64,000 bases of DNA from Chrysomallon squamiferum (Eukaryota; Animalia; Mollusca): the NCBI GenBank assembly GCA_012295275.1, contig CM022676.1:13640001-13704000 (forward strand), read 5' to 3'. Positions within the stretch are counted from its first letter, which is position 1, and every line of letters begins with the position of its first letter. The notes under the pieces were generated by a model. The model ran no database searches. It was not told the origin of the DNA and saw only the letters and a program-made list of their open reading frames with translations. The translations under genes and the position numbers were made by a program. Of the stretch, positions 5,784 through 35,433 are shown one piece after another.

Positions 5784-6140
5784 CTGCATCACTGAAGATA
5801 TCTGGTTCTTTGTCTTATGCAGTGTTGAATGAGAAATTTACATTTACTTGTACTGTGTCACAGGCTGCTGGTCTTACTGACTCAGTAATATTTTATAAAA
5901 TACAACAAGGAAAAAAGAAAGAAATAGGTTCTCTCTATCAGACTGGTGATACATGTTCTTTATTCAATGATGCTCCTGGCTACACTCCAGTGTGTGGAGA
6001 AGGGACAGACGTTGGATCATCAAGTGTAAAGAACTACACACTGACCATAAACAGAACTTCAACTGATGATGAAACACTCTGGTGGTGTGAACTGTTTCCA
6101 GCTTTAAAGAGGAGCAACAATTTTACTTTACCTGTTTACT
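5784..6140 (+). CDS. Gene A exon: N-terminal V-like Ig domain (D1)
   Basis: cag acceptor at 5781-5783; FTFTC...YTLTINRTSTDDETLWWC; 357 nt, same length as the gene B counterpart. The donor reads ATAAGT instead of GTAAGT. Confidence 0.8.
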
Positions 6141-9100
6141 ATAAGTAATTATCATATTAACTAAACAATTAGTGGACTTTTACTCATTTTTAAAGTGCAG
6201 AGTTACACATTAAAATCAAATGACATAATTATATTAGTATATAATGTATGTATGTATGTAGGTACAACATCAAGTAAACTTACATCCCCAAAAGAACGAT
6301 GTTTTTTAAAGAATAATTTTATTTTATTATTTAGATGGTCCAGACTCTGTTACACTCAATTTAACATCACCTTTTGAAGTGGTAGAAGGACACAGTCTCA
6401 GTGTTGACTGTGTTGCTGTGTGTAAGCCAAGCTGTTCCTACTCGTGGAAGCTGGGAAATGATGAACTCACATCAAACTCTCAACTGAGACTGACAAACAT
6501 CAGCAGGAATGAAGCAGGAAATATTTACATGTGTACAGTGACAAACTCTGAAACAAAACAGTCTGAAAGTAACACTGTAACACTGACTGTCTTCTGTGAG
6601 TTATTCAGATATTTCAGATTATTTACATCAAATTAACTATTTCATTTTTTGCTCACTTTGAATTTGTAATAACTATATATAAAGTATACACATATTAAAT
6701 TAGGGTACAAATAAAACAGAACAATGTGAAAGTAACCACTTCACATTGACTATATATATACTTTATTTTCAAATACATTTTTTCTTTCTTACTTATTTTA
6801 ATGTAGTTATCAAATATTCAAACTATTCAGTGTGCTGCAAAATGTATAATGAAATCTCCACATGAAAATACACTTACTATTCTAACATTTCTATTTACCT
6901 TTTTATTAATATCATCATTTTTATTTTATTTAATTTTTAATTTTTGGTGAATAATAAAACAGAAAATAATTGATAGTGAATAATGAGAGATTTATATTGA
7001 TTTGTTTTTTATTTATTTATTTTTGAGAATAATAAAATAGGAAATAATTGTTAGTAAAAAAACACTGCTTCAGATTCAAATTAAAATATTTTCAGATCCT
7101 CCCAGTTCACCACCGGTTATTACAGGAGCAACATTTCCTGTGTTTGAGGGTGACACTGTCACACTGAGCTGTTCTACAACTGGTGGAAACCCAAAACCAA
7201 ATCTGAACTGGACATGTTATAATCCTGTACAATGCTATGACAGTGGAGAAACCAGAACATGTAGAATATCTTTCATTTCAGGACTCAGAATAACAAAGTG
7301 TGTGTTTGTATTCCCTCCTGGAAATATGATGGCTACACTGAAAACAAATCAACAAAGATTATTATTTACTGTGAGTTTTATCCTATCTCAATCTAAAATG
7401 ATATTAATATTCTACTTTTTAATGCAAATTCTCTTTATTTATTTATTTATTTATTTATTTTCTTATTTTTATTCAGTTTTCTCATTATTATTTATTGAGG
7501 TGTTCAAAATATTGATTCATCATACATGGAACACATCTTTCAAATTGGAAAACTATTTTTTGCTGGTTTCATTAAATTTTCTTTTGTGTTTAATTTGTAA
7601 AAATATATATGCATGTATGTGAACATGGATGTGTGCATACAGACATACATACACATATATATTTGTGTATGTATGTTTGTGTGTATACAAATGTGTCTAT
7701 GTATGTAAGTATGCATTTACTAAAAATATTGTTTATTTTCAATAATTAAAAATAATATATATCCAATTAGGAGTTATAATTGTGGATTTATTTGTGATCT
7801 GTTGGTTATAGTTAATGTTTATTCATCAGTTTAGTAATTAACAACTGATTTATTTTCAGATCCGCCAAGTCAGCCATCTTTGTCTTCAAACCCCACACAA
7901 CCCTGGCTTGAAGGAAAAGCAGGTTCACTGATTTGTTCTTTACCAGAAAGTGATCTTGGAAATCCACCAGCAACATTTCACTGGATTAAAAATGAACACA
8001 ACACAACATTTGTGGGATCCAACTTCTCATTCACACCAACAAAAGATGACAATGAAGACAAGTACAAGTGTACTGCTGAAAATCTGTTCACAGACAGACC
8101 AGATCAAACCAGACCTGAATCTAGTGTACTTCAACTCAATGTCTACTGTAAGTTATACTTCAATTTAACTATCTACTTCAACTCCTAATCTAGCTGTAAG
8201 TTATACTTCATTTTAACTATCTACTTCAACTTAATGTTTACTGTAAGATATCTTTCAAGTTAAATATGTACTTCAACTCAGTACTTTACTTTAACTATCT
8301 ACTTCAATTCAATGTCTACTGTAAGTATGCTGCAGAATGTGTAATGAAATCTGCACATCAAAATACATTTATTATTTTAACATTTCTATTTACCTTTTTA
8401 TTAATATCATTATTTTAATTTTTTCTTTACCTTCTTTTTTTTGAGAATAATAATAAAACAGGAAATAAGTGACAGTCGAAAATCAGAGATTTGTCTTAAC
8501 ACTGCTTCAGATTCAAATGAAAATATTTTCAGATCCTCCCAGTTCATCACCAGTTATTACAGGAACAACATTTCCTGTGTTTGAGGGTGACACTGTCACA
8601 CTGAACTGTTCTACAACTGGTTGAAACCCAAAACCAAATCTGAATTGGACATGTTATAATCCTGTACAATGCTATGACAGAGGAGAAACCAGAACATGTA
8701 CAATATATTTCATAGCTAACAGAACTCATAATAACAAAGTGTGCGTTTGTACTCCTTCCTGGAAATATGATGGCTACACTGAAAACAAATCTACAAAGAT
8801 CATTATTTACTGTGAGTTTTATCCTATCTCAATCTAAAATGATGTTATTATTCTACTTTTTTAATGCAAATTCTCTTTATTTTTTTTATTAGCTTTTTTC
8901 CTTCTTCTGTTTTGTGATTATTATTTATTTAGGTGTTCAAAATATTGATTCATCATACATGGAATACGTCTTTCAAATTGGAAAACTATATTTTGTTGGT
9001 TTCATTAGATTTTCTTTTGTGTTTAATTTGTAAAAATATATATGCATGTATGTGAACATGGATGTGTGCATAGAGACATACATACACATATATATTTGTG

Positions 9101-12100
9101 TATGTATGTTTGTGTGTATACAAATGTGTCTATGTATGTAAGTATGCATTTACTAAAAATATTGTTTATTTTCAATAATTAAAAATAATATATATCCAAT
9201 TAGGAGTTATAATTGTGGATTTATTTGTGATCTGTTGGTTATAGTTAATGTTTATTCATCAGTTTAGTAATTAACAACTGATTTATTTTCAGATCCGCCA
9301 AGTCAGCCATCTTTGTCTTCAAACCCCACACAACCCTGGCTTGAAGGAAAAGCAGGTTCACTGATTTGTTCTTTATCAGGAAGTGATCATGGAAATCCAC
9401 CAGCAACATTTCACTGGATTAAAAATGAACATAACATAACATTTGTGGGATCCAACTTCTCGTTCACACCAACAAAAGAAGACAATGAAGATAAGTACAA
9501 GTGTACTGCTGAGAATCTGTTCACAGACAGACCAGATCAAACCAGACCTGAATCTAGTGTACTTCAACTCGATGTCTACTGTAAGTTATACTTCAATTTA
9601 ACTATCTACTTCAACTCAATGTCTACTGTAAGTAATACTTCAGTTTAACTATCTACTTCAGCTCAGTGTTTAATATAAGTTATACTTCAGTTTAACTATC
9701 TACTTCACTCAGTGTCTACGGTGTTATACTTCAGTTTAAATATATATTTCAACTCAGTGTCTAGTGTGTTATACTTGAAGTCAAATGTCTGCTTCAACTC
9801 AATGTTTACTATAAGTTATAATTCAATTCAGTGTTCTCTGTAAATTATCTTTGTTTATTTGTCGTATTCAGTCCAACTAGAAACTTCTGCAGCTGTTTTT
9901 CAATGTGCCTGTAAAGTAACTGTTTCAGTAAAGAATTGTTTCAATAACGTATTGATAAAATGTCTTGTATACATTACATTGTTAATATTTTATAGATTAT
10001 CCTAGACTACAAATATATCTATCACATTCAAATCCTGTAAAGGAAGGTGATGATTTGACCTTGACCTGCACAGCAGACAGCAACCCCAGCTCTGTTGAAC
10101 TCAAGTGGAAATTTGATGGAAATATTCAAGTAAATAATGGAATACTGGATTTGAAAAACCTCAGTAGAGATAATTCTGGCAGTTACACATGCGAAGCAAC
10201 TGTAACAACCAGTAACCATGGAAATCTTGTGAACTCAACTGAAACTGAACTTGTTGTCAGTTGTAAGTACTAATAACATTGTCACTTTAATAGAATTACT
10301 CCAGTTATATAAATAACTGAGATATTGAGAAGTTTGTCATCAACAACATTGAAATGATTTTACATTATATAATCTTTATAACATGTCAGATTAAATAATT
10401 TACTAAAAATAAAACCTGTTTCTTTGACTTTTTTGTTTTTTCTTATTTCAGATGCTCCTGATGTCAGCTTCCCATCTGAGAATTTAACAGAAAACATGTT
10501 ACTAAAAATAAACTGTTCTGCTGATGGTCGTCCTGACAACATGAACTTCTCAGATTTCAAACACTACTGGAATGACGTGTTTGTTAGAAAAGTGACAGGC
10601 AGACATGTTGGACGTAACAAATACAGTTTGATGTTTGTTTCTGCTTCGTATCAGGACAGTGGAACGTATCAGTGTAGTGTGCACAACGGGATTCCTGGCA
10701 GAAGTGGAACTTTGGAACAGATTGGCTACAGTGTTGTTTATATTAAAGGTAAAAGAAAGGAATAACAAATATATTTCATGTAATTTTTAGAGATATTTAA
10801 AAACATAATTTCTAGATCTGCTGGTAGAATATAACTGAATAGTACTGAGCTGTATTCAAGATAGATTTTAAATTTTTTATTGACAGATTTTAGTATAATT
10901 TTCTTTTTCATTTATGTAAACACTCACCACAACTCATCTACAGTTTCTGTTCTCCATTATACACAATCAATTCGAATTGAAAATGTTTAAGTAAATGAAA
11001 AGAGAAATGCTTGACATAAATGTTGCAACAAGGATTTTTATGTATGTTTATAAGTCACTTGTATTTTGGTCTTTTTGTTGCAAGCAATCTTATTCTAAAC
11101 TTATTCTAAACATGTATGATATTTCTTCACGTAGTTATTCTGTAAACTGTATGGTGTTTGGGGTATTCTAGCATTTTGTCTGATCCTCTGAGATTCCTAT
11201 CAAATGATAAGCAATAAAATCTCAGAAAAGAACAATTTAGAAATATTAGTCAAGCAGTTTCTAAGATATAGATCATCAAAGTCATTTATAAACTTGGTGA
11301 CAACAATGAGTTGCTTATCATTTGATTTTTTCATAAACTCACAAAACTGGTATATTTCATGATTTCTAGCTTTATAGTGTATCTTAGATTAACATAATTA
11401 TTTGAAAATGATTTTTCATTTCTAAAATATTGATTCAAAAATAAAAATGTCTTTGTTGGTAGTCATATATAATAATATAAAAGTATCAGTGAAAAGCAGA
11501 TTTTACCATTTCAATATGTAGCATCTGTTACTTTTAATATGGATATATGTGTCAGTGGTTTAAAACATAATATATATATATTTTGTTTTCTTCATATTTC
11601 AGCAAAACCAAAGATCACTATGGAAACTAATCATGATATTGTGGGAGCTGAAATTGGAAAGCCAGTTTTATTAGTAAAAACTTTGTTTTGTAATCCCACT
11701 ATCAACAATTATACATGGATGAAATCTGACAGTGAAACAAGTTTTAATAATACGAATGTTGAGGAGACAAATGTCACACTGAAAATTCACGGCAAACTGA
11801 TTAAAGACTCAGGATACAGAATTTCACTGAAAATCACAAACTTCACACAAGATGACACTGGAACATACAAACTGTCTGTCTGTAATGAAGTTGGATGTTC
11901 TCAGTTTTCTGTGAACCTAACTGGAGCAGGTCCACCTCTTCCTCCTAAAGAGTTCCAACAAGAAAGAGAATCAACATCAGACACAGTGTTCTTGTCATGG
12001 CTACCTAACTACCCAGGTGGTAATTTCAAACAAAGATTTATACTGCAGTACAAACCACAAAGTGACTCTAACTGGATTACTTGGACAAGTAAATGGTTTG

Positions 12101-15100
12101 ATGACTCAACACAAGGACAGAAAATGTTTTTTAACATCACCAGTCTCAAAGACAAAACAGTTTATGATGTCAGAATTTCAGCTGAAAACACGAGGTCTTC
12201 AGACAATATGAGCAATTATGTCACCATTCAAGTAATTACAAAAGGTAAACATTATCTATTTTATTAAACACACGATAGAAACTGCCACTCCATCTGTTGC
12301 TATTAAAGGAAGTAAAGATACATTGTTAGTTTCAGAACAGTGATATTATTGTTCATATTCTTTATCAATTACAGTTGTATAAAAAGAAGAATGTTATTTT
12401 ATATGTTATTTATGAGTTACAGTGTTTTAATAAGTAGAATGTTATTTTATATGTTATTTATGAGTTACAGTTTTAGAATAGGAAAATGTTATTATATATG
12501 TTATTTATCAATTACAGTTTTAGAATAGGAAAATGTTATTATATATGTTATTTATCAATATTTATCAATTACATCTTTAGAAGAGCAAAATGGTATTATA
12601 TTTTACAGTTGTTATTTATCTATTACAGCTTTAGAAGAACAGAGTGGTTCTAGTTCTCTGCTTGGTGCAGCTGTAGGAGGAGCTGTTGGTTCTGTGACTG
12701 TCATTGTTGTCATAGTGACACTGATTGTGTTACTTAGAAGACGGGTATTACCAGGATTGTCCACCAAAAAAGGTATGGTTATACAGCTTGTAAACAGAAC
12801 AATTTTTAAAAATGTATTGATTATATTCATTATATGAGAACTCTAATAAATCAGCAAACAAATCTAAGAAACAAAACATCACTTTATTGTGAACTTCTAT
12901 TATTATGTTGATATCACTGACTTGTGACTACATGGCTTGCATGTTGGCATTGTTTTAGTATATATTTTGTGTGTTTTTATGTGATTAATTTTTTCAAATA
13001 GTGATGTCATGCAGATTTTGAAAAAGTTAAGAAAAATAATGTTTTAGCATACTTCTTTTAATATAAAGCCCTACCATGTTTTCTAATCATGTTTTTATTT
13101 TATGTATTTTATTATTTTATATAATTTTAAATAATTTAATACAGTTACTTAAATAAGTGGTATTTGATGTATAATGAAGAAAATAATTATAAAATAAACA
13201 TTATATTATTTGGAATAACTACTGGTTGTTTATTAATCTTGAACCAGTGGATAGAGAAATCTCTTTTTATTTCTTCTTTCCTTTTTAACTAATTTTAGAA
13301 TTTTTTTTTTATTATTGCTGACATTTTTATTCCTGTTAATTTTTTATTTCAGGAGAGGATATTGACATTGCTTTGTGAGTATATTTTCACTATTGTTGTT
13401 GTTGTTAGTGTTATTATTATAAATATTATTAATATTATTACTGTTTTTGTTATTAAAAGGAGATAAGTGAAAATAAAACAAATACATCACCGTAATTTGT
13501 TATTAATTCTCCTGTTATTCTATCTGTAGATGACTATAATAAATAGTTTTTATGTTTGTATCTCTACAGGCATTATTTATGTGCCAATGTAAATTCTTTC
13601 TTTCTTTGTGAGGAACATAATTAGTTAACTTTTATTACTTATTGATGCAACTCACATTCGAACAGTCTTCATTTAGGTATACCAAATGTGTACTTAATAC
13701 TGATTATGATATTATTTAAATGTGCCTTAGGTAACCCATTATAAAACATTTACATGCAGATTATCTGACATAAACAGATAACCTGAATTTGGCCTAGGTA
13801 TTCATTTAAAAACTGAACAGATTCCAGATTTGAACAAAATATAAAACTAAGGAAGTGAAAGCTGACAAATTGTATTTACAAACTGAAATTAAAAAATATG
13901 TGTCAGTCAGACCTCAATACCATTTGTAACATTAATATTATGATAATTTAAAATGAAATTCTACTTGCTATACAGTATGTTTATTTGAACAATCAAATTT
14001 AATAAAATAATGAGACATCTGTAAAAGCTTAGCAATCTTTAAAGAATAAAATTTTGTGTTTCTTATAAAATACCAAATAACATATAATAAAAATTACACA
14101 AACATTCCATTAATTTTCCAGAACATTCCCAACCCTAAGAAATTAGTGTAAAGAAATAGTCGTCTGCTTTTGTGCTCACCTTGTTAAAAGAATAAGCAGA
14201 AATTTTCATCACATTTTATTATGTTTTATCTCTGTTTGACAACTACATATCTGTTTTTTTATCTGGAATTTATACTTAAGTATCATATTTTTAAATTTTT
14301 AAAGAAAGGCATGGTTTTAAAAAAAAAAAAATCTGTTTATTTGTGGATTATTAATGGTAATTATAAAATATTTTTGATTTATTGTTTTACATTCTTATTT
14401 TTGTTTGTGACATTTGTATACTAATCCTGTTCAACTCAAGACAGTCTTATTTTGTGCTGTCATGTAGGATCGATTAAGAACACAAAATAATACACATATG
14501 TATTTCCATTGGACAGAAATCCTGGACATATATTAGTATTAATACAAAATCCATAATTATTGTTAAAGTGATCCATGATTATTTTCTAATGGATTTCACA
14601 AACTTAGAATAAGTGCAGTGACTAAAGAGTGATGTATGTATAAATGATAAGAGAAATGGAATCTACATTCATATGCTGTTGTGTGTTTTACTTCCTATGG
14701 TATAGCACATGCATGATTAGTATTGAACTGATATATATATATTTGCATGCTTTTATTTTTTGAAGATTCTTAATTCATATATATGAAATTTAAAACAATC
14801 TTGCGTGTATGTGAAAAAAATACTCGTAAAGCCATATTTTCATACATTTACTAAAAACTAGTAGCTGTTTAGAATATATTGCAAGGTATAATGATTATAA
14901 AAACAGTAACAGTAATAAAAAGATAGAAAATATTTTTAACATCTTCACAGTTTTATAAAGCTGCAGATAATTAGTTTGCTTATATTGTATAATAACTGAT
15001 TTTTTAAAACATTCTTTCTTTATTAATATTCTATTGTGATATATTGTCCAATTTATACGCTATGGGAAAAAAAATAAAAAATAAAGTTGGAATGTAAACA

Positions 15101-18100
15101 ACATAGCATAACATATATGACATTGTTTGAACATGTTTTTGTTAAATATCCATATTATTTTATAATTTATGCTTTGCCATTTTCATTAATAAAATTTAAT
15201 ATATGTCTTTGTAGAAAATGCTTATTAATTAAATATATCATTTACATGAAGTTTGTGTAAAAAAATTCAAAGGTGTAAATTATTTAGACTGTTTTTTCAA
15301 AAATAAATTTCATTCGATGCATGAAACATTTTAATGAAAATTATTGATTTTAAGTAAAGTAAGCTTTCCTTTTTCTTTCAAAATGATTTAACAATTTATC
15401 CTTTGAAGATTCTTTTGTTTGCTTGTATTTTACTAATTTTACATCCTTCATTTGAAGCCATCTTCTGATATCCCATGCTTTAATTGGACTTAAAAAAGCA
15501 ACCAACAGAATACAAAATTAAAAGATGATAATAATAAATAAAAATAAATACATAATGAAAATAATTTAATAAATAAAGTAATTAAAAAACAAAAGTTTTA
15601 GTTCTAGAACACAATGAATTGTACTAAATGAATCGTGATGACAGATTAAAGAGTCGAGTAATGCCAGGTGTGCATCATAAAAATATCATGTAAAACTAAA
15701 ATACTCCAATCAGGATATGAAACATAATTAACTCGAGAATCCAATAGAAATAAACATTGATCCTGTTTTGGCTTCAGTGTTGGAGGATAATGATTTGTAT
15801 TTCAAGTCTGATGACATAAATGTTTAAAAAAGCAAAGAAAAGAAGAAATGTAATAATATTAATAATGAAATAATTAATAGATAATTCATCTCTTCTGAAT
15901 GTATCAGTAATATTTTGATCATTCCAAATAATTAAATATGTCCAAATAAAGTAATTCTAATTTTAATTTTATTATAAGCTTTACTGTAGCATTGGTTTAT
16001 TTATTTAATTATTTATTTATATTTTTTTTGCAAGATGCTTTATTTTCTTCACAGTTAATATTCCTTCTTTTTTATTTGTTTCCCCTCCAGTGTTGGAAGA
16101 CAATGATTTGTACTTTACATCAAAAGATAACAGTTTAAATAAATCAAGACAATCAGGTATGTATTAGTTTATTTATTAAAAAAAAAATTAAAATAAAAAA
16201 ATAAAAAATAAAATAAAAGTAAAATAAATATTTGTTCTGAGAGTATATAATAATATAAAAGTCAAAATTGTTTTCTTACTGTATATACAGCTCATCAATT
16301 ATTGTTACTGTTAAAAATATGTTAATTTACTTTTAGCCATATTCATATTAAAACAATGCTGTATACAAATAAGTTGAAATATGATAATGAATATGATTTC
16401 CTCTTTGTTTAACTGTTAAAAAAGAGTGAATATTAATGTGTACCCATCATTATCTATCCATCCATTAACTATCAGTTATCTATTTCTGCTATATTTTCCA
16501 GTCTAATTTTGACATGTCTGGTGTATTATTTTAATAATTTTATGATGTAACACTAAAACAACAACAACAACAACAACAATACTACTACTACTACTACTAC
16601 TAATAATAATTGTTATAATAAAGGATACCAACCCACCACCACACCTGAAAACATCTCATACAAGATTTCCTTCCTCAACAATACCAGTGCATATTTGTCT
16701 TTTTGTTTTAACTGTTACAACATTTGGTACATAAATTTTGATTTACTATCACACATTGTTCATTTCAATTTTTTTAATGAAAGAGAGAAACGAACAATAT
16801 CAATAAACAATGAAACAATACTTATAATAATACTAATATTTTAGCTTTTATTGGTTTAAAGAATTACATATTTTCAGAAATGAGATATTTCATATTTATA
16901 ATATACTTTGCTCAAAGAGTCAAGTGTCTGGTGTTGCTAACATTTTTATATTTAATTAAGTAACATTTGTTTAATATGTTGTATTTAATACAGCAGGAAA
17001 TGATTCAAGTCAAACTGATACTCAGCCAAGCACAAGTTCTGGAGTGACAGCTGAGAATCCTGAAAGTCAGTATTCTGTTGTAAAGAAAATAAAGACTGGT
17101 CAGTCTACAGCTAATCAGAGTAAAGAAGGTAATAAAAACAATTAAAACAAATAATAGGAAATAACAGAGAGGGCTGTTTGGGACTTTGGGCATATTATTA
17201 ATGTTGAACTCTACATTTTCTTAGATGTTCTAAATGTGTTGACATCCGGTGATGTCCTGACTGACTTTGCTAAATGCCATCAGTTAGTCATTGTTTAGTA
17301 AACCATGAAATTATAAAGGGACCCAAATTAATTGAAATTTGTAAAGATTTTTGTTTTATAAATATCTCCACACACTTTATATTAAATATTTATTAGGTCA
17401 TCATAACATGTTGTTGTATTTTTTATTTATTTATTTTTTTATCTTCTGCAGTCCATAACCATAATTATTAGTTTCACAGATAAAATTTGTTGACTGCATC
17501 ATTAATAAAAAATCTGCCTTTCTTTGTTTAATCTCTTAATTGTTAGTTAAGAAAAACAGATAACTGTTTTATCAGTTAATGTTACTTCTCCCACAAATTA
17601 CAGGTAAAAAAGGTCAAACAGAATCTGCCAATCAGAAAAAAAAGAAGGAAAAACAAGATTTGACGTTAAAGAAAAATGAAAAAGAAACGAAAAAGAAAGA
17701 AAAAGGTTTGTAAATTGAATAAGTAGGGTTATGTGATGAAGTAATTTACAGTAACTTTTAATAAGTGATATCAAATAGGTCTTTGTAACTTCTGATATCA
17801 TGTCATCCTTCACAGGGAACCTACCCAGGTAGTAGCAACTGACTTGAGATTAGTCACGCGGGCACAGATAGAAACTCATACACTCTCTGACATAATTGAA
17901 TAATACCATAATAAACATAATATTACTTGTCACAACAATCACATCAGAGTTAAACAAAGTGCCAAAAATGTAGTTACCTGCCTGAACTTTAAAGTTTCTC
18001 ATGGACAAAAAATCTCCCCATGTGATTCCATCAGTCTCCCTCCAATAATCTCATTGCTTATGCCAAAGAGTGGAAAAGCCAGGTGACTATGTATTAAGCA

Positions 18101-19548: not shown

Positions 19549-19579
<31 letters not shown>

Positions 19580-24479: not shown

Positions 24480-25150
24480 GGGTCATTAAGCTGGCAGATT
24501 AATGATTCAGTTATCTATGTTGAATGTTCATCAGAAGACTGAAAGTGTATGACATAAGTGGCAAGACAAAGTAAATGGATGAGTTAAGTTGCAGTTAACA
24601 GAGAAAAAAATATGTATTTAGTGGCATCCCACAAAGCTCTCTTGGACCAATATTAATTGAGCTGTTCATTATGAATCGCCAAACATGGTATATGGCACTG
24701 ATTTAATATTTGCTGATGAGTTTTCTGTCATGATTCCAGACATTTTATTTAGTGTTTGGTGAGACAAATGGAAGTCTAATGGCACAGTGTTGGAAATGAA
24801 ACAATCAAAAATAGACAAGGAATTCAAATTTCATTATAATCTTGGTACCAAATTAACTATGCATTATCCATGCTTGGTTTGAAATACGTTGATGAAACTA
24901 CAGTTACATAACTTTTTATAACAGTGGTCCATACTCACCAGGAATATAGTAATTCCATCTGGTGTGCTAGTTTCAGTGTGGGATAAATGTAACCAAATCA
25001 TCTATGTACTGCAATATTATGCTGTTAAGACCAAAGTTAATCTAAAGACAGCCTATATGTTCGATAATGTCTGGTATGAAGGAACTAATATATTGCAATT
25101 AGTTCAGTGGTAGACAAAAGAATGGAGGTGGATCATTAGAATAATGATAC
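24480..25150 (+). mobile_element. Degenerate CR1-like LINE RT fragment
   Basis: VFSGIPQSS-LGPIL, IFADE and a decayed (P)xxEYSNSIW motif, in broken frames. Confidence 0.5.
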
Positions 25151-25323
25151 ACTGAAAGGGAAACTCTAGTGACTTTATATTTAAAAGGCAATAATCCTAT
25201 AACATCTACACACAATACTGTATAATTACACCTGCTACTGTTAGTTAATGAAGAAAATAATCATCTGGTATTTGTTAGTTTAAATCATGTAACTAACTAT
25301 CAGGTAAACTGAATGAATGAATC

Positions 25324-25324
<1 letters not shown>

Positions 25325-25386
<62 letters not shown>

Positions 25387-25395
25387 AATAAATAA
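25325..25395 (+). repeat. (AAT)n/(AAAT)n microsatellite
   Basis: Directly visible; similar tracts at ~26112-26181, 35235-35290 and 62271-62313. Confidence 0.9.
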
Positions 25396-25669
25396 AACAG
25401 CACTTTACTAGTTCATTTCAGTAATCATCTTGAAAGTTATGCAGTAAAAGTTTTATTTTGTTCAGACATTACTATAAGAAATTAAAGTAAACTGATCTGC
25501 CCTGTATCTGATGACAGTGTCTGTGCCGAGATACTTTTAATCTGCACTTTTTTATTCATAATTAATTATGAATGGATCACAAAAATTAAAATTATTTTGG
25601 AAGTTTATAAAATATATTAAGACTTTATTTTTGTAGCAAAAAACTATAAACATTATTTTTAAGAATTAA

Positions 25670-26110
25670 TTATACTGTTGCAGATCGAAAAATAATTGTA
25701 AATAAATAAGAAGTAAAAAAGTAAATAAAATGTAAAAAGAAAAAGAAAAATAGATAAATAAATAAATGAATAAATAAATAATCATAAATAAATAACATAA
25801 ATAAATAATAAAAAAACAACAACAACAAAAGACAAATTAAATTGTGTAAATATTTACAACCTGTTTTCTTGACGTTTTCATATAGATGAAGTTTAGTGTA
25901 ATCTGCTGAACCTCTCCTTTCCTGTAGTCCTTCGTATGTTTCATTTGTCTGATCAGCCTCAGATACATCTTCTGTAAATTACAATTAATCATTTCGTAAG
26001 AAAAATTTAGCTAAAATGTTAGTTAAACATTTATATTTTGTGAGACCAATATAGTCCAACAGTTATGTATGTGTCACTTACTTATATTTTTAATTCTCAG
26101 TTATAACTAA

Positions 26111-26158
<48 letters not shown>

Positions 26159-29100
26159 ATTATTATTATTATTATTATTATCATGTAGAGTATCTAAATA
26201 AATGATTTTACAGTTGCAATAAAATAATCATAAATTTAGCTGTTATAGAAGATTTACCAGATCTGGTTTGTATCATTACTGGTCTGAGACTTATATCATA
26301 TCTGCAAGAAGAAATCACGATTTTAAAGTATCTGCATCAAAATAAGTGTGCATAACAGACAGACAGGTCGTAACAGATTAAACAGTTTTACTGAAGGAGC
26401 ACTGAACATGAATATCTGTATGAAATAGACATTTCCAGTACCAACAAGTTGTTTGTTCATGCTGAATCTAAAAATGCAACTTCTAAATTGTTATTTTGTT
26501 ATTGTTGGCATTTAAAATTGATAGATACCTGTGAGTAATACTGTTAGACATACTTTTTTATTTGTTGCTGTATAGCAAATTACAAGTTGAACAAACTAAA
26601 ACATACTGATTTTTTACTAAGTCTGTATTTAACAGTTTTTTATGTCAGCGTTGATAATAGTTACAACTTGCCAGGCAGATTAAATTAGAAGTAAGCAAAA
26701 TAAACTTACGCAGATAATCCATTTTTGTTACCTGCTAAAAAATAAAATGCCTGAAGTTTTGTAATCTTTGCAAGCACAAATATTTGCAAAGATAGATGTA
26801 TGCAGACACATATACATATATTTGTCAAATGAGTAGAAATTACATAATTATTATGTGAAATATTCTGATCTGCTAGCATTGTGAAAATAAAACTTTAAAT
26901 TTTTTGTAAATTATACAACTTAGATATTTACATAAAAAAGTATTTCATTTAGTCAAACAGAAATTTGAATCAATTTCATTATGTTACTTTCACCATTTAC
27001 ACAACTTATTAATTTTTCATTTACTTTATTTTTCTCTGTTTGCAAAAAGTAAAGGTAAAATATTCCTTGCAGTTATATTTTAAAAAGAAAAGAAAAAAGA
27101 AATGAGAATACAATAGAGAGAAGACTATTTCATTACAGAAACACAAAAATCAGTATAAATGTTATTGAAACCTTGTTTACAGATATATCCTTTTCTTCTG
27201 AGTATTTCAAGAATTGCATACATCACAGAAGCAGCAAGAAAACCTATCACAATCCCAACTGCTATACCACCTGCATCACCTAGTTTGTCTGACTGCACTA
27301 AACAAGCTTCTTCATAACAAACACCTGCATTAAAAATATTACAAAAATACCACAGACACACATTTACTGTGAGATTATCTTTGAAATCAACCATGTTAAA
27401 TAAGAAAGTATAAAATAATAATAATAATAATCATAGCGAAGATTCAAACTTGATGGAAATAATCCCCTTTTGTGATGATAAAAAATTTGTACTAGTTTAT
27501 TTTTGTGGCAAATGGTTACTTTTGTTTTTGGCTTTTTTTTAATGCTATAGTACCCCGTTTCACGAACCTCTTCAACCTAAACCAAAATATAATTATCATT
27601 TCAACTCCTTGGGTTCATCATAGACATGTATTTCTGCAAAACAACAAAAAGAAATTGGTCTTCGTTTACATACTTCAACTGAAATAATTTAAAAAAAAAG
27701 AAAATTAACGTTTACCATTCCTATTTTGAAACATCACAAAGATCTATATAGGTTATAATGAAAAGGTTATTTTGAAATTTTTTTGTTATTGTTTTTAAAT
27801 ATATATATTCCACATTTAGAAACTCTAGCACAAACAGTTTTCATACAGCATCTTTCAAAACATGTAATAGCAGTAAAAAAAAAAAAATTATAATAATAAT
27901 AATAAAAACAAAATTAAAATAAAAGGAATAAAGAAAGGCAATGATTAAGAAATACAAATTAAGTTTTATAAATCATATTTCCACTTATTATGGCTATAAG
28001 GGTGCTGTTATGTATCATTATTATCTAAAAAAACCCACCAAAAACACCATGAAACATTTATCTGGAAAAGTTACTTGTTTATGAACATTTTCTAAACAGT
28101 CATACCAAAAACTGAAAAACAATTTTGGTTATTCAAATGTTGTCATTTTCTGCCAAGAAATAAATACTAATGTTATAATAAAATAACTGAATGTCAAATT
28201 AATAGCAACTGCTGGGATGTCAGCTTCTGTGGTATGTTTAATATCAGAGATATGTTTACCTGTTGTAATTACTTGAATTCTGACATAACCGCTCATATTG
28301 TCTGAAGTTCTTGTGTTTTCACCTGAGATTCTGACATCATACACTGTTTTGTCTTTCAGTCTGGTGATGTTAAAAAATATTTTCTGTCCTTCTGTTGAAT
28401 CATCAAACCATTTACTTTGCCAAGCAGTAATCCAGTTAGAGTCACTTTGTGGTTTGTACTGCAGTATAAATCTCTGTTTGAAATTACCACCTGGGTAGTT
28501 AGGTAGCCAGGACAAGAACACTGTACCTGATGTTGATTGTCTTTCTTGTTGGAACTCTTTAGGAGGAAGAGGTGGACCTGCTCCAGTTAGGTTCACAGAA
28601 AACTGAGAACATCCAACTTCATTACAGACAGTCAGTTTGTACGTTCCAATGTCATCTTGTGTGAAGTTTGTGATGTTCAGTGAAATTTTGTATCCTGAGT
28701 CTTTAATCAGTTTGCTGTGAATTTTCAGTGTGACATTTGTCTCCTCAACATTCGTATTATTAAAACTTGTTTCCCTCTTAGAGTTCATCCAGGTATAATT
28801 ATTCATAGTGGGATTACAAAACAAAGTTTTTACTAATAAAACTGGCTTTCCAACTTCAGCTCCCACTCTGTCATTTTTAGGTTCCATAGTGATCTTTGGT
28901 TTTGCTGAAATATAAAACAAACACAAAATTAATTTAAAAAATGTATGTAGTAAACAGCTAAAACAAGTTTCATGTAATTTGTTATAAAATAAACAATAGC
29001 AAACCCACATTAGAATGAGTTGGAATACATTATCTACATAAACAACACAATTCTCATTTTCACAGAGATTTTCATATTATTACATATGACCAGAATGCTT

Positions 29101-32100
29101 GAAACGGTAAATAAATTTAGTTTTGATTTAATATTTCAAGTAATTTTATTAATCTAACAAAAAAGCTAGAAATCATCAAATATATCAGGTTTGCGAGTTC
29201 ATGCAAGGATCAAATGATGAGGAACACATCACTGTCACTGTAAGTGAATTATTTTAACGTCAGGAAACAAGTTATATTAGTGGAAGATTCAGTTCACATG
29301 CAGGAAACAGTGAGGACATTATAAAGTATATTCAGATTAATACAAGATGATCTAAAAAATTAAAGAAAATCTAAAACTTGCTTTGTTATCAGACAGCACA
29401 GTTCATTTTGGACAAAAAGAAAAAGAAAATGACAGTTTTGAAGTTGTAGACATTTGATGTTTACTTAGAAGAATGACTGCGATTTAACTGAACGACTCTG
29501 GCTCTACTGTCCAAACAATGCTGTTTATGACAACTGCTCATGGAAACCAAAGCCCAATAGGTACACGTATTTACATTGCATACAAAAAAGATAAATCTTC
29601 TTTCATGACTAATTTGAAAATCTCTGTTATTTTTGTCAAACATTTCTTCTTTCTTCTAGGAAAACAGAGGTTTCGTTTACTCCAGTCTTTTAAATTACAA
29701 TCGATGAAGAAACACCGTTATCATTACTGTTTTTCATACCTTTAACATAAACGACACTGTAGCTAGTCTGTACCAAAGTTCCACTTCTGTCAGGAATCCC
29801 GTTGTGCACACTACACTGGTATGTTCCACTGTCCTGATATGAAGCAGAAACAAACATCAAACTGTATTTGTTACGTCCAACATGTCTGCCTGTCACTTTT
29901 CTAACAAACACGTCATTCCAGTAATGTTTGAAATCTGAGAAGTTCATGTTGTCAGGACGACCATCAGCAGAACAGTTTATTTTTAGTAACATGTTTTCTG
30001 TTAAATTTTCAGATGGGAAGCTGACATCAGGAGCATCTGAAATAAGTAAAATACAGATAAAGTTTTTCTGTAATTTAATTAATTTTAAAAAAATCAGACA
30101 TTTCAGATATTGTCTTCTCTTACAACTTAAAATCTCAATATCTCAGTTATTTATATAACTGCAGTAATTATATTACAGTGACAATGTTAAGGCAAGACTT
30201 ACAATTGACATTAACTTTAGTTTCAGACGAGTTCAACAGATCTCCATGGATACTGGCTCTTACATTTGCTTCGCATGTGTAACTGCCAGAATTATCTCTA
30301 CTGAGGTTTTTCAAGTCTAGTATTCCATTATTTACTTGAATATCTCCCTCAAATTTCCACTTGAGTTGAACAGAGCTGGGGTTGCTGTCTGCTGTGCAGG
30401 TCAAGGTCAAATCATAACCTTCCTTTACAGGATTTGATTGTGATAAAGATATTGTAATTCTAGGATAATCTAAACAAAATATAAACAAAGTAACGTACAC
30501 AAGACATTTTAACAATACATTACTGAGACAATTATTCACAGGAACAGCACATGACTGAAACACTACTTTGGTAAAACAAAAACAACAATTAAATAACAAT
30601 TGGAGATTGAACAACACCTGTAACAGTTTATAGTTAGACTGAAGGAGACGAATAATCATGAAGATAATTTACAGAAAACACTGAGCTTAAGTTAATATTC
30701 AATCTGAACTACAACTTATAGTGAACATGAGTTTGAGAATAACTTACACCGATCATGTATTGAAATAGATATTCAATCTGAAGTATAACTTGTACTGATC
30801 ATTGAAGTGAAGTAGATTTTAAAGCTGAAGTACAATAAAGTATATATCTAATTTTAAGTATAACAAAATTTGAACTGAAGTATGTAATGAAGTATATATT
30901 TAACATGAAGTATAACTCAAGGTAAATACTCAATGATGTAAATATTGAAGTTGAAGTATAACTTTCAGTAAACAGTGCAGTTATGTAGATATCTAACTTG
31001 TAGATATCTAACTTGATATACAACTTACAGTAAACGTTCAGCTGAAGTATATATTTAAGTATGAATTGAAATATATATATACAACCTTGAAGTAGGTATT
31101 TAACTTGAAGAATAACTTACAATAAACATTCAGTTGAAATATATATTTAGGATTAAGTATATCTTACTGTAAACAAATGCATTGAAGTATATATTTATCA
31201 TGAAGTATGGCTAACACTAAACACCGAGTTGAAGTAGATATTCAAGATTAACTTACAATATTTGTTTTTACACGTAAATATTTCAAGTTGTAATCGTTGA
31301 ATTGCATGTATTTGTGTATTTTAATCCACAACAATAACCAACGACTGAACATTCTGAACTTAGCCAGTAATATATATTGATATGTGTATCAATTACAAAC
31401 AATATAAAATTCACTTACAATAAATAGTCAAGCTTCTGCTTTTTCCCCAGTTGTAGACGCCATACTTCCAACTAGAAACACACTCACACACTTTGTTATT
31501 CTGAGTCCTGTTAGCCATGAAAGATATTGTACACGTTCTGGTTTCTTCTCTGTCAGAGCAGTGTACAGGATTATAACATATCCAGTTCAGATTTGGTTTC
31601 GGGTTTCCACCAGTCGTAGAACAGTCCAGTGTGACAGTGTCACCCTCAAACACAGGAAACGTTGTTCCTGAAACAACTGGAGATGAACTCGGTGGATCTG
31701 GAAATGAAAGAGCAAATCAGTAATTTGTTACACTTTACGTTTGCAAAATGTATTATAGTTTCGGCATAAACTCGTACGAGCAATATCACGTCTGATTTCT
31801 GTGATTTTCTTCTTACTGCTCTTGACATAACTGTAGACTGTTTTTATGAATGTTGGAAGGCGACTGTTTTGTTGAAAGCAGTAAGAGATTGGGAATATTT
31901 TCATTTGCACCAAAAACACATATATTTATCTGATGTCATAAACAAGACAAATAATTTATTAATTGGTTAATTATTAATATAAAAGTATATAAAGAAAACT
32001 TAAATAAAATATAACAATTAAATTTATTACTTAATCACAAAAATATTGTTCTTCTCATTGCTGCTTATTTAATGAAGTTAATTAATATCTTCTGATTAGA

Positions 32101-34269
32101 TCTCTCTTAAGCATATTTAATTTATTCGTTTTATTTTTGTTCCAATTATGTATACTTTTCTTATCTTCATGTAATTATGATTAGCATTCCCATCATAAGG
32201 TTTCTTATTCACGTTGTTCCACTTTTTTCTTATACTTAATATTACGTATGTTTATTCCTAGTCTATAATTTATAACTTTTTGAAATACGTAATTTACACT
32301 ATTAAACAAAATTCAAGAATATTTAACTGTGACAAAAACAAAACATACTACTACTACTACTGCTGCTACTACTACTACTAATACTAATACTAATACTACT
32401 ACTAATAATAATAATAATAAATGTGACAAAAGCACTGTTATGTATTACAGAAATTATTGAGTCTAATATTGTAACAATTAACAAAGCTTTGCATTTAAAT
32501 TTAAAACAAGAAGAGATTAAAATCAATACTCCATTAAGTTCAGTTAATTAGAGGTAAATTCTATTAAACATTCATGTTTTGCAATGAAACTTGAATAACT
32601 CAAAGTAAATTGTCAGTCTGAAGTTGTTTCTTTCAGACTGTTTTGCTTTGGTGTTGTTACTGTAATTTAATACTAGTGAAAACGAGACTCAAAATTAAAT
32701 AGATATTTTAATACAAACTAAATAATATTTAAAAATATAGCTCACAATAAGCTGTCAGTGTCAACTGGTTACTTTTAGTCTCTTTTGTTTTAGACTGATA
32801 CTAATTTAAATGCTATCTATTAAATTTTAACGATGTCAATAATATCAAAGAAAAATCTGAGTAACTCACAGAAGACAGTCAGTGTTACAGTGTTACTTTC
32901 AGACTGTTTTGTTTCAGAGTTCGTCACTGTACACGTGTAAACATTTCCTGCTTCATTCCTGCTGATGTTTGTCAGTCTCAGTTGAGAGTTTGATGTGAGT
33001 TCATCATTTCCCAGCTTCCACGAGTAGGAACAGCTTGGCTTACACACAGCAACACAGTCAACACTGAGACTGTGTCCTTCTACCACTTCAACAGGTGATG
33101 TTAAACTGAGTGCAACAGAGTCTGGACCATCTAAGTAATAAAATTAGAATAGTATTTAATAAACTTTATCTACAGTCTACGTATGGAAATGTAATTTTAC
33201 TTGATGTTACACGCACACAAATTAATATCATTTTATTTAGTTTAATGTTTAACATTGTACTTTTAAAATGATTAAAATTCCAATACTTGTTTAATTAATA
33301 TGATAATTACTTACAATAAACAGGTAAAGTAAAATTGTTGCTCTTGTTTAAAGCTGAATTCAGTTCACACCACCAAAGCGCTTCATCATCAGCTGAAGTT
33401 CTGTTTACGGTCAGCGTGTAGTTCTTTACCCTTGATGATCCAACGTCTGAACCTTCTCCACAGACTGGAGTGTAGCCAGGAGAACGATTGAATAAAGAAC
33501 AACTGTCAACAGTCTGATAGAGAGAACCTATCTGTTGTGTTTGGCTTCCAGTTAGTTTATAAAACTGTACCAGGTCTCTAAGACCGTCAGCCTGTGACAC
33601 AGTACAAGTAAATGTAAATGTCTCATTCAACACTGCATAAGACAAAGAACCAGATATCTTCAGTGAAACACCTATACGGAAACAAATTAAATAATAAATA
33701 CCTTTTAAAATTATAAAAATTGGACACTTGAAAAAATTAAACAGAGTTTATTAAATTGTTTTTTATATTATTATGATGATGATGATGATGATGATATTCT
33801 GTCATCACTAAAACAATTCAAACCGCATGTTAATTATTTCAGATATTCAGTGTCTAACATTTTTCCAATGTACTCGGCCTTCAACCTCACATAATACGAT
33901 GTATTTTGCACGTATACTACCATACAGTCCTCTAGAATTTTGAATTATTTAGTGGTTCTCAGTAAATATCTATGAACCTATTCACATAGTTGTGAAATAA
34001 CGATTTTAATTATCATTCATTACACATTGTACTAACTGGTCACTACAGTGATAACTGTCAGCTGAAACCAGATATTATAAGGATATATAATGTTCTGAAT
34101 AAAGAACAGTGTAAGAGTACGTATATCAATTTGATTTTAATGTGTTATGTGCTATTGTACAGTCAGTAATTATAAAAATGGTTATGGTATAATTCAACTT
34201 GGTCTAGTGTTACGTACATTACTTCAGTTTGAACAAGGAAATTTATTCACGGAAAACAAAATTATATAT

Positions 34270-34302
<33 letters not shown>

Positions 34303-35245
34303 CGGATAGATAGATAGATAGATTACAAATGGTGTCCGGATTGCAAGAGTGATAAGAATAACTGTTATACACATTTTGCCGTAGATTTGTTTTCTTGCTC
34401 TTAATTATTCAATGATTTTTTGTTTCTCGAAGATCATTTTTAGAGTAACAATTTGAAGTATTTAACTAGATCGTTTCCGACAACTCCATTATGTGAAATA
34501 TAATCCAAGTGTAACATTATAACACTATACTAGCTGTCACAGTACATTTTACTATCACTGTAGAACACTGCACTTCACAACCTCGAAATGAAACAAAATC
34601 TTAATCGCATCTCTTTCTTTTATTTATATATTTATTACATAATTGTTATTATTATTATTATTATTATTAAAATTATTATTATTATTTTATATTGTTACTG
34701 TTATTGTTATTGTCATTGTTGTTATTATTATTATTATTATTATAAAAATATACGTCGCAAATCTGATATGTTTAACGTTCCTTACAGTTTATGGGACTTC
34801 ATAGTCCGATTCATTCACTTTTCACAGAGACGACGTTCAGTTTAAATAATATACACCAAACTAGTTTTAACCAGGGCACAGACTGAATAACTTTTCAGTA
34901 CACAGTTTATATCAGTAATATCTAACATATCTGTTTCAATGTATGAATTAAATAGTATCAATAAAATTTACCTAAATATCCAACAATCGAAGCAGAAACA
35001 AGTATGTATCCCACTATCGCCATAGTGTATGTTGTGATTTACTTTGTTTCTTTCGTGTACACAAGTTATAGCCAGTCTATCTAAGTTATCTTACTCGGTC
35101 ACGTTATTACTTCAGCGCTCTCACTGTAATAAAGCGTCTACTTCTATCTCGGTTAAGGTATAAAAAAATCTCATTCTTGTCAAGACTAAAATCAAAAATA
35201 ATAAAAACAGATAAACAAGATGAATAACTAAATAATAATAATTAT

Positions 35246-35290
<45 letters not shown>

Positions 35291-35433
35291 CAGCTCTGAC
35301 CGGCATAAATCTGAATAATACAAATGAATAAATAAATAAATGAATAACCAAATAAAAAAACAATTGAATGAAACTTACCTGTACTACATGTAACAATCAT
35401 GACAGAAACTAGTAAATATCTCAATGGCGCCAT
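25670..35433 (-). CDS. Gene B: multi-Ig + FN3 type I membrane receptor with cytoplasmic ITAM (activating type), apparently intact
   Basis: Exons high to low: leader 35433-35379 or 35023-34972; 33671-33315; 33130-32870; 31697-31419; 30469-30203; 30036-29740; 28904-28260; TM 27324-27172; 26731-26710; 26301-26258; 25971-25861. The terminal stop exon is uncertain (~25674-25670 or 25541-25537). All junctions are GT-AG and frame-consistent. Confidence 0.85.
25861..25971 (-). CDS. Gene B ITAM exon
   Basis: tttacag|...|gttgta, 111 nt; EDVSEADQTNETYEGLQERRGSADYTKLHLYENVKKT. Confidence 0.8.
26258..26731 (-). CDS. Gene B cytoplasmic micro-exons (26731-26710, 22 nt; 26301-26258, 44 nt)
   Basis: Phases 1>2 and 2>1 complement each other: GNKNGLSA + YDISLRPVMIQTRS; donors gtaagt and gtaaat. 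Confidence 0.7.
27172..27324 (-). CDS. Gene B stalk + transmembrane exon
   Basis: 153 nt, phase 1-1; GVCYEEACLVQSDKLGDAGGIAVGIVIGFLAASVMYAILEILRRKGYICKQ. Confidence 0.85.
28260..28904 (-). CDS. Gene B Ig-like D7 + FN3 exon
   Basis: 645 nt; paralogue of 11603-12244 with one extra codon. Confidence 0.88.
29740..30036 (-). CDS. Gene B Ig D6 exon
   Basis: 297 nt; paralogue of 10452-10748. Confidence 0.85.
30203..30469 (-). CDS. Gene B Ig D5 exon
   Basis: 267 nt; paralogue of 9996-10262. Confidence 0.85.
30665..31255 (-). repeat. Orphan copy of the D4 donor-site minisatellite in gene B
   Basis: Reverse-strand units such as cttcagctgaacgtttactgtaagtt and tttcaactgaatgtttattgtaagtt; ends in cagtgttttctgtaaattatc like gene A ~9830-9850. 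Confidence 0.7.
31419..31697 (-). CDS. Gene B Ig D3 exon (intact)
   Basis: 279 nt open; VTLDCSTTGGNPKPNLNW...NNKVCEC. Confidence 0.85.
32870..33130 (-). CDS. Gene B Ig D2 exon
   Basis: 261 nt; paralogue of 6335-6595. Confidence 0.85.
33315..33671 (-). CDS. Gene B N-terminal V-like Ig D1 exon
   Basis: 357 nt; tag acceptor and intact gtaagt donor. Confidence 0.85.
34268..34323 (+). repeat. (GATA)n microsatellite
   Basis: Directly visible. Confidence 0.9.
34972..35023 (-). CDS. Gene B signal-peptide exon (proximal)
   Basis: MAIVGYILVSASIVGYL-G|gtaaat, phase 1. Confidence 0.65.
35379..35433 (-). CDS. Gene B signal-peptide exon (distal)
   Basis: MAPLRYLLVSVMIVTCST-G|gtaagt, phase 1. Confidence 0.65.

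Follow-up and report, generated by a model that had tools for sequence, protein, structure and literature searches.

Vertebrates provide the textbook cases of paired ITIM/ITAM receptors whose similarity gene conversion maintains, and parallels exist in cnidarians and tunicates. Does the snail Chrysomallon squamiferum encode such a pair? In the stretch of DNA analyzed here (64,000 nt, hereafter the window), a first-pass annotation had noticed two genes, A and B, and proposed that they encode an inhibitory and an activating receptor. We compared them with the definition of paired receptors (PMC3533184, section 3). On balance, the sequences favor the view that A (ITIM) and B (ITAM) belong to a gastropod V+6Ig+FN3 multigene family that likely constitutes a paired-receptor system, and that A is likely a disabled copy or allele in this assembly.

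Layout of the two genes and their tails

Gene A on the forward strand and gene B on the reverse strand converge tail to tail, as the annotation had stated, and are adjacent (clustered), with 4.6 kb between their coding ends (Table 1). Exons of 357, 261, 279, 267, 297 and 642–645 nt are common to both, with nucleotide identities of 86, 98, 83, 90, 96 and 93%, respectively. Amino acid identity over these six ectodomain exons is 75–95%, and hence the extracellular domains are conserved. The correspondence is not exon for exon, as had been claimed, because the Ig numbers differ: A contains a 1.4-kb internal duplication (Ig3a-Ig4a-Ig3b-Ig4b), and B lacks an Ig4 exon. The limit of similarity was correctly placed, at A 12306 and B 28198, ∼62 nt into the intron that follows the FN3 exon. 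Intron lengths differ between the genes, and their transmembrane (TM) and tail exons are unrelated (A versus B tail, z = 0.0, 300 shuffles).

Table 1. Exons and repeats of the two genes, with positions counted from the first nucleotide of the window
Feature	Position	Strand	Evidence
A Ig1, V-like domain; 5' splice donor mutated, ATAAGT at 6141	5784..6140	+	
A Ig2, intact; 98% nt identity to B	6335..6595	+	
A Ig3a, 4-nt deletion (275 nt), frameshifted	7096..7370	+	
A Ig4a, open; no B counterpart	7860..8147	+	
47-bp minisatellite derived from the end and donor of the Ig4 exon, bordering the internal duplication of A	8127..8320	+	
A Ig3b, premature TGA at 8622	8533..8811	+	
A Ig4b, open	9293..9580	+	
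A Ig5	9996..10262	+	
A Ig6	10452..10748	+	
A Ig7+FN3	11603..12244	+	
A TM	12629..12772	+	A-type FN3-TM join in RNA run X3
A tail micro-exon, candidate, 22 nt; would need a second, frame-restoring exon	13353..13374	+	
A tail, LEDNDLYF	16091..16156	+	Homology to P0008
A tail, ITIM-consensus 1 (SQYSVV, 17065-17082)	16994..17128	+	
A tail, lysine-rich	17604..17705	+	
A tail, short, predicted	19593..19625	+	Aligns to P0008
A tail, YENV and YANA tyrosines	20133..20227	+	
A last coding exon, ITIM-consensus 2 and 3 (LLYVGI 21126, VEYVSI 21195), stop	21096..21284	+	70% identical to P0008
B ITAM (YEGL-x8-YTKL, 25936-25889), then YENV	25861..25971	-	
B tail c2, 44 nt	26258..26301	-	c1-c2 join in RNA run X2
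B tail micro-exon c1, 22 nt	26710..26731	-	
B TM, not alignable with A's	27172..27324	-	FN3-TM join in RNA run X2
B Ig7+FN3	28260..28904	-	
B Ig6	29740..30036	-	
B Ig5	30203..30469	-	
47-bp minisatellite remaining where B lacks Ig4	30739..31251	-	
B Ig3, intact	31419..31697	-	
B Ig2	32870..33130	-	
B Ig1, predicted V-type fold	33315..33671	-	
B second, duplicated signal-peptide-like first exon	34972..35023	-	
B signal peptide	35379..35433	-	RNA run X2 joins it to an Ig1 exon

The tail motifs reported earlier, three ITIM-consensus hexamers in A and a YxxL-x8-YxxL ITAM in B, were confirmed. In 20,000 shuffles of each tail, the probability of their chance occurrence was 0.0001 for the three ITIMs and 0.009 for the ITAM, values that are post hoc, the motifs having been chosen first. 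Both consensuses are degenerate, and B has no acidic residue at position −3 relative to the first tyrosine. At the motif level, A has the ITIMs of an inhibitory member, and all three are conserved in Gigantopelta aegis. The TM segment of B has no central Lys or Arg and its tail, of at least 68 amino acids, carries its own ITAM; B does not match the adaptor-type activating members (KIR, LILR and PIR, with a short tail and TM Lys/Arg), and at the motif level it matches the intrinsic-ITAM (CEACAM3) type.

Relatives in other molluscs and possible exchange between ectodomains

A homologue search, which the annotation had suggested, recovered both tails and the ectodomain family among proteins of the vent snail G. 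aegis, where both tail types are conserved on the same 7-Ig+FN3 ectodomain (A resembling XP_041372798 and B XP_041378983). P0008 (XP_041372798.1, LOC121386065) ends in the A tail, complete with the three ITIM-consensus motifs, and P0003 and P0002 (XP_041378983.1 and XP_041379249.1) carry B's ITAM exon, and six of six motif tyrosine sites are kept. Scored against 300 shuffles each, the A tail matches P0008 at z = 52 and the B tail matches P0003 at z = 19, versus 3.6 and −0.5 for cross pairs; tail homology thus follows type. The ectodomains are of the same family, with 49–66% identity per domain. G. aegis differs in that the ITAM exon is duplicated, the ITAM-type proteins have an A-like TM exon, and P0003 keeps Ig4. 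Further afield, a scallop Ig-FN3 protein has an A-like tail (z = 16.5) and an abalone one a B-like tail (z = 9.7); the B TM is no measurably closer to abalone TMs (scores 39–46) than to A's (37). A direct homologue search with the last exon of A gave none of three candidates, the match being reached via a cluster member, and in an atlas search with the P0008 tail all scores were under 0.8 and thus uninformative. Relatives are named hemicentin-, titin-, DSCAM-, syg-2- or CD22-like, labels as uninformative as had been guessed; the annotation was also right in supposing a molluscan source. Paralogues P0005 and P0006, and loose ends of RNA contigs at 31697, show other N-terminal Ig modules.

Tails cluster by type across species, and ectodomains cluster by species. 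Identity between A and B is 88% over Ig7+FN3 (versus 61% for A–P0008 and 57% for B–P0003), 95% over Ig6 (versus 57–59% across species) and 78% over Ig5 (versus 49–55%). AU tests rejected the clades B+P0003 and A+P0008/P0004/P0005 (lnL lower by 148 and 149, P < 1e-50). Such a combination of type-wise tails and species-wise ectodomains is what gene conversion, or swapping of ectodomains, between paired receptors should produce; the tree conflict would also follow from one old duplication in which an A-type ectodomain came to precede an ITAM tail. Synonymous divergence between A and B is uneven over the seven domains (dS 0.017–0.37, chi2 = 28, P = 9e-5; Ig2 versus Ig1, P = 0.002). Tree conflict and uneven dS thus favor ectodomains kept alike by exchange, with the caveats that the N exon is not the most homogenized and that a single swap fits too. 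Mechanistically, the inverted arrangement could have permitted repeated exchange in patches, by gene conversion or ectodomain swapping, as far as the boundary shortly after FN3. At the 47-bp minisatellite, unequal exchange may have altered the Ig number, A gaining Ig3-Ig4 and B losing Ig4.

Few parts of A and B are less alike than the N-terminal V domain (77% amino acid identity, dS 0.21), and hence the two may not share a ligand. Of the 27 residues changed in Ig1, 20 map to the predicted C-C'-C''-FG side, which takes up 43 of the 118 positions (post hoc P = 7e-6); the V domains accordingly differ on the face that likely binds ligands. Divergence there, together with paralogues bearing other N-terminal Ig modules, the damage to A and the modest likeness of the G. 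aegis ITIM and ITAM types (only 60–79% over Ig5-FN3), would suit an expanded family of adhesion or microbial receptors evolving by birth and death: old ITIM and ITAM tails would now and then have been shuffled onto recent ectodomain duplicates, and members would have different ligands and form no counter-balancing pairs. We regard this as possible, if unlikely, since uneven dS suggests that exchange happened more than once, two genera keep both tail types on a single ectodomain family, and the genes are adjacent and inverted here.

If A and B types do act as paired receptors, clustering by ligands, most probably microbial surfaces that the V domain recognizes, would lead a Src-family kinase to phosphorylate the tails. 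The B type would then recruit Syk/Shark and trigger phagocytosis or activation, a response that the A type, through recruitment of SHP2/SHIP, would damp.

Comparison with known receptors

Vertebrate CEACAMs consist of an N domain and constant Ig domains, without FN3. A and B resemble vertebrate CEACAM1/CEACAM3 and Xenopus ceacam pairs (PMC5112662) in their V-type N domain, constant-type Ig domains, an ITAM that is intrinsic and not on an adaptor, opposite orientation, signs of conversion and changes on the CC'C''FG side. Inverted orientation with conversion is itself the criterion for Xenopus ceacam pairs (PMC5112662). A and B are unlike CEACAMs in having FN3 in both genes and in being homogenized across the whole ectodomain, most weakly at the N exon, the reverse of Xenopus ceacam. 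The best PDB match was CEA (E = 2e-28), and CEACAM clusters gave the best structural matches; generic Ig similarity alone would suffice to account for this resemblance.

Hydractinia Alr proteins are likewise invertebrate V/I-set+FN3-like receptors encoded in clusters with pseudogenes (PMC9546547), and alr2A (ITIM-like) versus alr2B/alr2C (ITAM) combine similar extracellular exons with opposite tails (PMC9546547; bioRxiv 10.1101/2022.03.25.485889). They differ in having 1–3 Ig domains, versus 6–7 in A and B, and allorecognition and homophilic binding have been shown for Alr1/2. The shared architecture (V+I-set+FN3 with ITAM/ITIM), clustering and pseudogenes, and the many sequence variants among our RNA contigs, in which alleles and paralogues are not separable, could reflect a polymorphic self/non-self system (allorecognition, or gamete or cell compatibility) based on homophilic V-domain binding. 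This we consider improbable: no Alr protein was among the named matches of our homologue searches, and solitary gastropods undergo no colony fusion.

Receptors of the nephrin/SYG-2/turtle type, with non-immune roles in adhesion or guidance and tyrosines serving as generic SH2 docking sites, would fit the Ig7-FN3-TM layout, the automatic names and the weak matches to SYG-2, Robo and DSCAM (E = 1e-11 to 1e-15). Single-copy developmental receptors are unlikely to show the divergence (49–66% identity between two snails), multiple copies, pseudogenization and change in domain number seen here. The best PDB match, CEA, and the tails also argue against such receptors, which we consider very improbable. 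Nephrin and SYG-2 tails feature YDxV repeats; these are absent from both the A and B tails, and the SYG-2 match is partial and weak (E about 5e-11), so orthology to nephrin/SYG-2 was rejected.

Among molluscs, oyster CgNCAM1 resembles A, being a hemocyte Ig receptor with 3Ig+FN3 and two ITIMs that binds SHIP2 and bacteria (PMC11841013), and CgIgR resembles B, being a hemocyte receptor with 5Ig and an ITAM that binds Syk and bacteria (PMC6994640); these are precedents for the signaling steps proposed above. The oyster receptors differ in that they are described singly, with no shared ectodomain reported and 'paired' appearing zero times in PMC11841013 and PMC6994640. The Botryllus FcoR co-receptors also form an invertebrate multigene family with ITIM and hemITAM types; they differ in being separate, chordate co-receptors that partner with fester proteins and switch tails by allele or splicing (PMC12582321). 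A 'CEACAM5' Ig orthogroup reported to be expanded, OG0000013, comprises 130 G. aegis, 101 Chrysomallon, 103 Bathymodiolus and 59 Lottia genes, and 0–31 genes in 14 other genomes (PMC7895826 supplement). Neither ITIM nor ITAM is mentioned in the 10 files searched of that supplement, or in PMC10875847.

Already known are vertebrate CEACAM1/3, Hydractinia alr2A versus alr2B/C and single oyster ITAM and ITIM receptors; our literature searches found no shared-ectodomain ITIM/ITAM pair in a mollusc. A two-genus molluscan case would mean that the same design arose again in spiralians. Functions would follow for genes now named hemicentin-, titin- or DSCAM-like, as would a testable switch for the balance of tolerance and attack in molluscs, symbiont-bearing vent snails included. 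A broader reading, rather doubtful in our estimation, joins these points: paired receptors of independent molluscan origin would combine ITIM/ITAM modules older than the gastropod–bivalve split with concerted evolution that keeps the receptors matched, would correspond to the expanded Ig family of chemosymbiotic molluscs, and would set symbiont tolerance versus phagocytosis, with inhibitory null alleles segregating.

State of gene A and transcript evidence

The model of B (35433-25861) is open over 830 codons, with no convincing terminal exon or stop found in the window. Paired receptors have both genes intact; in this assembly A shows a dead donor (ATAAGT versus GTAAGT in B), a frameshift and a premature stop codon. 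The lesions, at 6141, 7275 and 8622, comprise two substitutions and one 4-nt deletion, all outside homopolymers. We found no cryptic Ig1 donor for A that was good, in frame and retained the second cysteine, and the sole in-frame product would skip three exons. Neither a signal-peptide exon for A nor a convincing frame-restoring micro-exon for its tail was found within the window. Given these lesions, the assembled A is probably either a pseudogene or a null allele belonging to an expressed multigene family, in which case A and B would not be a working pair in this haplotype. Although the lesions are known from this assembly alone and an error might underlie one of them, an assembly artefact, with A and B as two haplotypes or the lesions as sequencing errors, is extremely improbable, the haplotype reading being excluded by opposite strands, different introns, dS up to 0.37, and unrelated TM/tails with separate G. 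aegis counterparts.

The proposed check of FN3-TM-tail splicing was borne out for its first step, with FN3 joined to the B TM (X2) and to an A-type TM (X3). RNA contigs also join c1 to c2 (X2) and A-type Ig1 to Ig2 (X2 and X4); TM-to-c1, c2-to-ITAM and all A tail joins were absent among the joints listed. The three RNA runs are from one study, of bulk RNA from unspecified tissue, and their contigs are possibly chimeric between paralogues. The X2 contig joined to the B TM (identified by its depth value, 9.75) has A's base at five of six listed FN3 sites. The A-type contig differs from A at 6 of 19 such sites and hence may represent another paralogue. RNA depth over the ITAM bin (1.6–4.9) equals that of flanking non-coding bins and was therefore not counted as support. 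The activating/inhibitory pair proposed at the outset is thus supported by tails conserved in two genera, species-homogenized ectodomains and both FN3-TM splices, and weakened by the probable breakage of A, further paralogues and V divergence.

A-type transcripts occur in other samples. In DNA run X5, Ig1-3 and FN3 are covered ∼10-fold more deeply than unique introns, and at one Ig3 site as many as 13 contigs overlap, values that hint at many paralogues and do not represent a copy number.

Shared ectodomains and divergent tails

Self-comparison of the window revealed inverted similarity blocks (5789–12306 versus 33666–28199), and exon mapping assigned to genes A (+) and B (–) shared exons of 357, 261, 279, 267, 297 and 642/645 nt, with nucleotide identities of 86, 98, 83, 90, 96 and 93%. 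Pfam detected Ig and FN3 domains in 12/12 ectodomain exons scanned (E ≤ 0.01), both V-like Ig1 exons weakly. These data bear out the inverted genes and shared ectodomain exons described in the first-pass annotation, as well as the proposed end of similarity (A 12306, B 28198), beyond which the TM exons are unrelated (26% amino acid identity). The claim that A and B correspond exon for exon fails, as A contains an internal 1.4-kb duplication of Ig3–Ig4 and Ig4 is absent from B. Tandem repeats copying the TM exon acceptor start just beyond the homology boundary.

ITIM and ITAM motifs follow the definitions quoted in PMC9546547. B forms an open spliced model of 830 codons (35433 to 25861), in which the predicted YxxL-x8-YxxL ITAM is present as YEGL-x8-YTKL. 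With a Gigantopelta aegis protein as guide, phase-compatible tail exons of A were mapped from 16091 to a stop at 21284, and these carry the three anticipated ITIM-consensus motifs (SQYSVV, LLYVGI, VEYVSI). YENV, which may bind Grb2, is present in both tails. At 26294, in the B tail exon c2, a 3-nt insertion in DNA run X5 (87/159 depth), also implied by a join in RNA run X2, changes YDIS to YDDI, a YxxI motif aligned with YEGI of G. aegis P0003 (XP_041378983.1); it is a polymorphic additional tyrosine motif ahead of the ITAM. The promoter region and signal-peptide exon of B are tandemly duplicated.

Of 320 candidates, five matched at E ≤ 1e-10, every one of them a G. aegis protein (57–58%); in a second search 3/7993 did so, again from G. 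aegis. The window therefore probably derives from a gastropod close to this snail. P0008 (XP_041372798.1) has A's tail, with the last exon 70% identical and all three ITIM-consensus motifs, and B's ITAM exon is present twice in P0002 (XP_041379249.1) and in P0003. A representative search (150 of 972 matches listed; 15 picked for single-copy coverage, 10 named) showed, among the matches listed, A-like and B-like tails on a scallop (z = 16.5) and an abalone (z = 9.7) protein, respectively. TM and tail were clear in 23 of 173 proteins compared, with ITAMs in four (P0002, P0003, P0106, P0143) and three ITIMs in two (P0008, P0128). The TM exon of the ITAM-type P0002 and P0003 resembles A's (score 97 versus 35 to B's), so the presumed exchange does not stop at the same point in both snails.

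Possible ectodomain exchange and lesions of A

Tails follow type, not species: A's matches that of P0008 at z = 52 and B's that of P0003 at z = 19, against 3.6, –0.5 and 0.0 for cross pairs. Ectodomains cluster by species instead: Ig7+FN3 is 88% identical between A and B versus 57–63% to G. aegis proteins, and the ITIM and ITAM types of G. aegis share 66%. AU tests on Ig5–FN3 (8 rows) rejected both type clades (p < 1e-50); P0001, P0002, P0006 and P0010, each without a domain, were excluded, and the partial P0004 and P0005 were placed with P0008 by 91–97% identity, not by tails. Support for A+B was 84/92 in this tree and 100/96 in a 19-row Ig7+FN3 tree. Between A and B, dS ranges from 0.017 (Ig2) to 0.37 (Ig3, from A's dead copy) and is heterogeneous between domains (p = 9e-5; Ig2 versus Ig1, p = 0.002). 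The tree conflict and uneven dS fit patchy conversion; one ectodomain swap followed by local exchange would also be compatible with these sequences. dN exceeds dS in no domain of A/B, hence positive selection is not demonstrated. Ig1 is predicted to adopt a V-type fold (pLDDT 71) that most closely matches antibody V domains (TM-score about 0.7), and 20/27 A/B differences, counted post hoc, fall on its predicted C-C'-C''-FG side.

Because P0003 has a single Ig3 and a single Ig4, V+6Ig+FN3 is probably the ancestral layout. A 47-bp minisatellite, derived from the Ig4 exon end, borders A's duplication and also sits where B lacks Ig4, which suggests unequal exchange there. A bears three lesions: an Ig1 donor reading ATAAGT, a 4-nt deletion in Ig3a, and a TGA at 8622 in Ig3b. 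No signal exon was found in 5.7 kb upstream, and an in-frame product requires skipping Ig1, Ig3a and Ig3b together, giving 728 codons to the TM end. A is thus likely to be a young pseudogene or a null allele. P0008 has two LEDNDLYF stretches; the additional one seen in A resembles an exon and may represent a fourth lesion.

Transcript joins

Contigs from four of five runs listed were compared with the B region; three are RNA runs from a single study and the fourth is unlabelled. The joins listed include signal exon–Ig1, Ig1–Ig2, Ig2–Ig3, Ig5–Ig6 and Ig6–Ig7. The FN3–TM–tail splicing proposed in the first-pass annotation stands in part: X2 joins FN3 to the B TM exon and c1 to c2, and a loose end in X3 joins FN3 to an A-type TM exon (28/30 letters match 12626–12655), but TM–c1, c2–ITAM, Ig3–Ig5 and all A tail joins are absent among those listed. 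Loose ends in X4 show Ig4–Ig5 (30/30 letters) and a signal exon ahead of an A-type Ig1. Ig1–Ig2 joins terminate in A's letters, so an A-like allele or paralogue exists in which the Ig1 donor is functional. The X3 contig shares the 3-nt gap of A and agrees with A at 13/19 listed sites, and is therefore A-like but not identical to A; A-type Ig7 variants number 8/8 listed. At 31697, some X2 and X3 contigs splice Ig3 to another upstream exon; G. aegis P0005 and P0006 likewise differ at the N terminus, where other Ig modules precede the shared core. An X2 contig of signal exon, Ig1 and Ig2 continues at 32868 into intron-like sequence and may represent unspliced RNA or a short secreted form.

A candidate molluscan paired-receptor family

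A/B is a real feature, and the activating/inhibitory pair proposed earlier survives, with support from two genera, as a likely paired-receptor family of molluscs; at this locus, an open ITAM gene adjoins an ITIM gene that is probably disabled. For the family, we consider it fairly probable that the V domain would sense microbial surfaces (its most likely target), with ITAM-type members recruiting Syk/Shark for activation and ITIM-type members SHP2/SHIP for inhibition. These roles are suggested by motif conservation and by oyster CgIgR–Syk (PMC6994640) and CgNCAM1–SHIP2 (PMC11841013). The main alternative, tail shuffling without functional pairing, is favored by the divergent V faces of A and B but seems less probable.

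Paired receptors of vertebrates have an established definition (PMC3533184), and Xenopus ceacam pairs were inferred from evidence of the same kind, although their conversion is restricted to the N exon (PMC5112662). In an invertebrate, Hydractinia, alr2A and alr2B/C already form an ITIM/ITAM pair whose extracellular exons are similar (bioRxiv 10.1101/2022.03.25.485889); the Alr family (PMC9546547) and Botryllus FcoR (PMC12582321) split into both types. Among openly licensed papers, in the text available, we found single molluscan ITAM and ITIM receptors and no shared-ectodomain pair. The G. aegis genome paper (PMC7895826) reports an expanded 'CEACAM5' orthogroup, also large in two other chemosymbiotic molluscs and Lottia, and the genes it finds at high levels in the oesophageal gland include CEACAM-like ones; 10 of its supplementary files mention neither ITIM nor ITAM. 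The best PDB match of P0003 is CEA; the A/B family is a candidate member of this orthogroup.

A third, distantly related Ig gene and mobile-element-like sequences also lie in the window.

Coordinates of additional features in the window
Feature	Position	Strand	Remarks
47-bp + 57-bp tandem repeats	12361–12638		
Second LEDNDLYF stretch, A	15778–15830	+	in-frame stop precedes any clear donor
Duplicated promoter and signal exon, B	35560–34930	–	both copies open, phase 1
Third Ig gene	42140–39143	–	
V-like exon	near 42140–41815	–	
C2-set exon	near 40662–40362	–	PF08205, E 3e-10
TM + tail ORF	39721–39143	–	
Isolated Ig-like exon fragment	62555–62780	+	by eye; no Pfam match
hAT transposase	51763–53647	+	PF05699, E 2e-6; divided among three ORFs
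Degenerate retroelement-like coding remnants	1–1300, 45900–47630, 58000–59800		translations judged by eye
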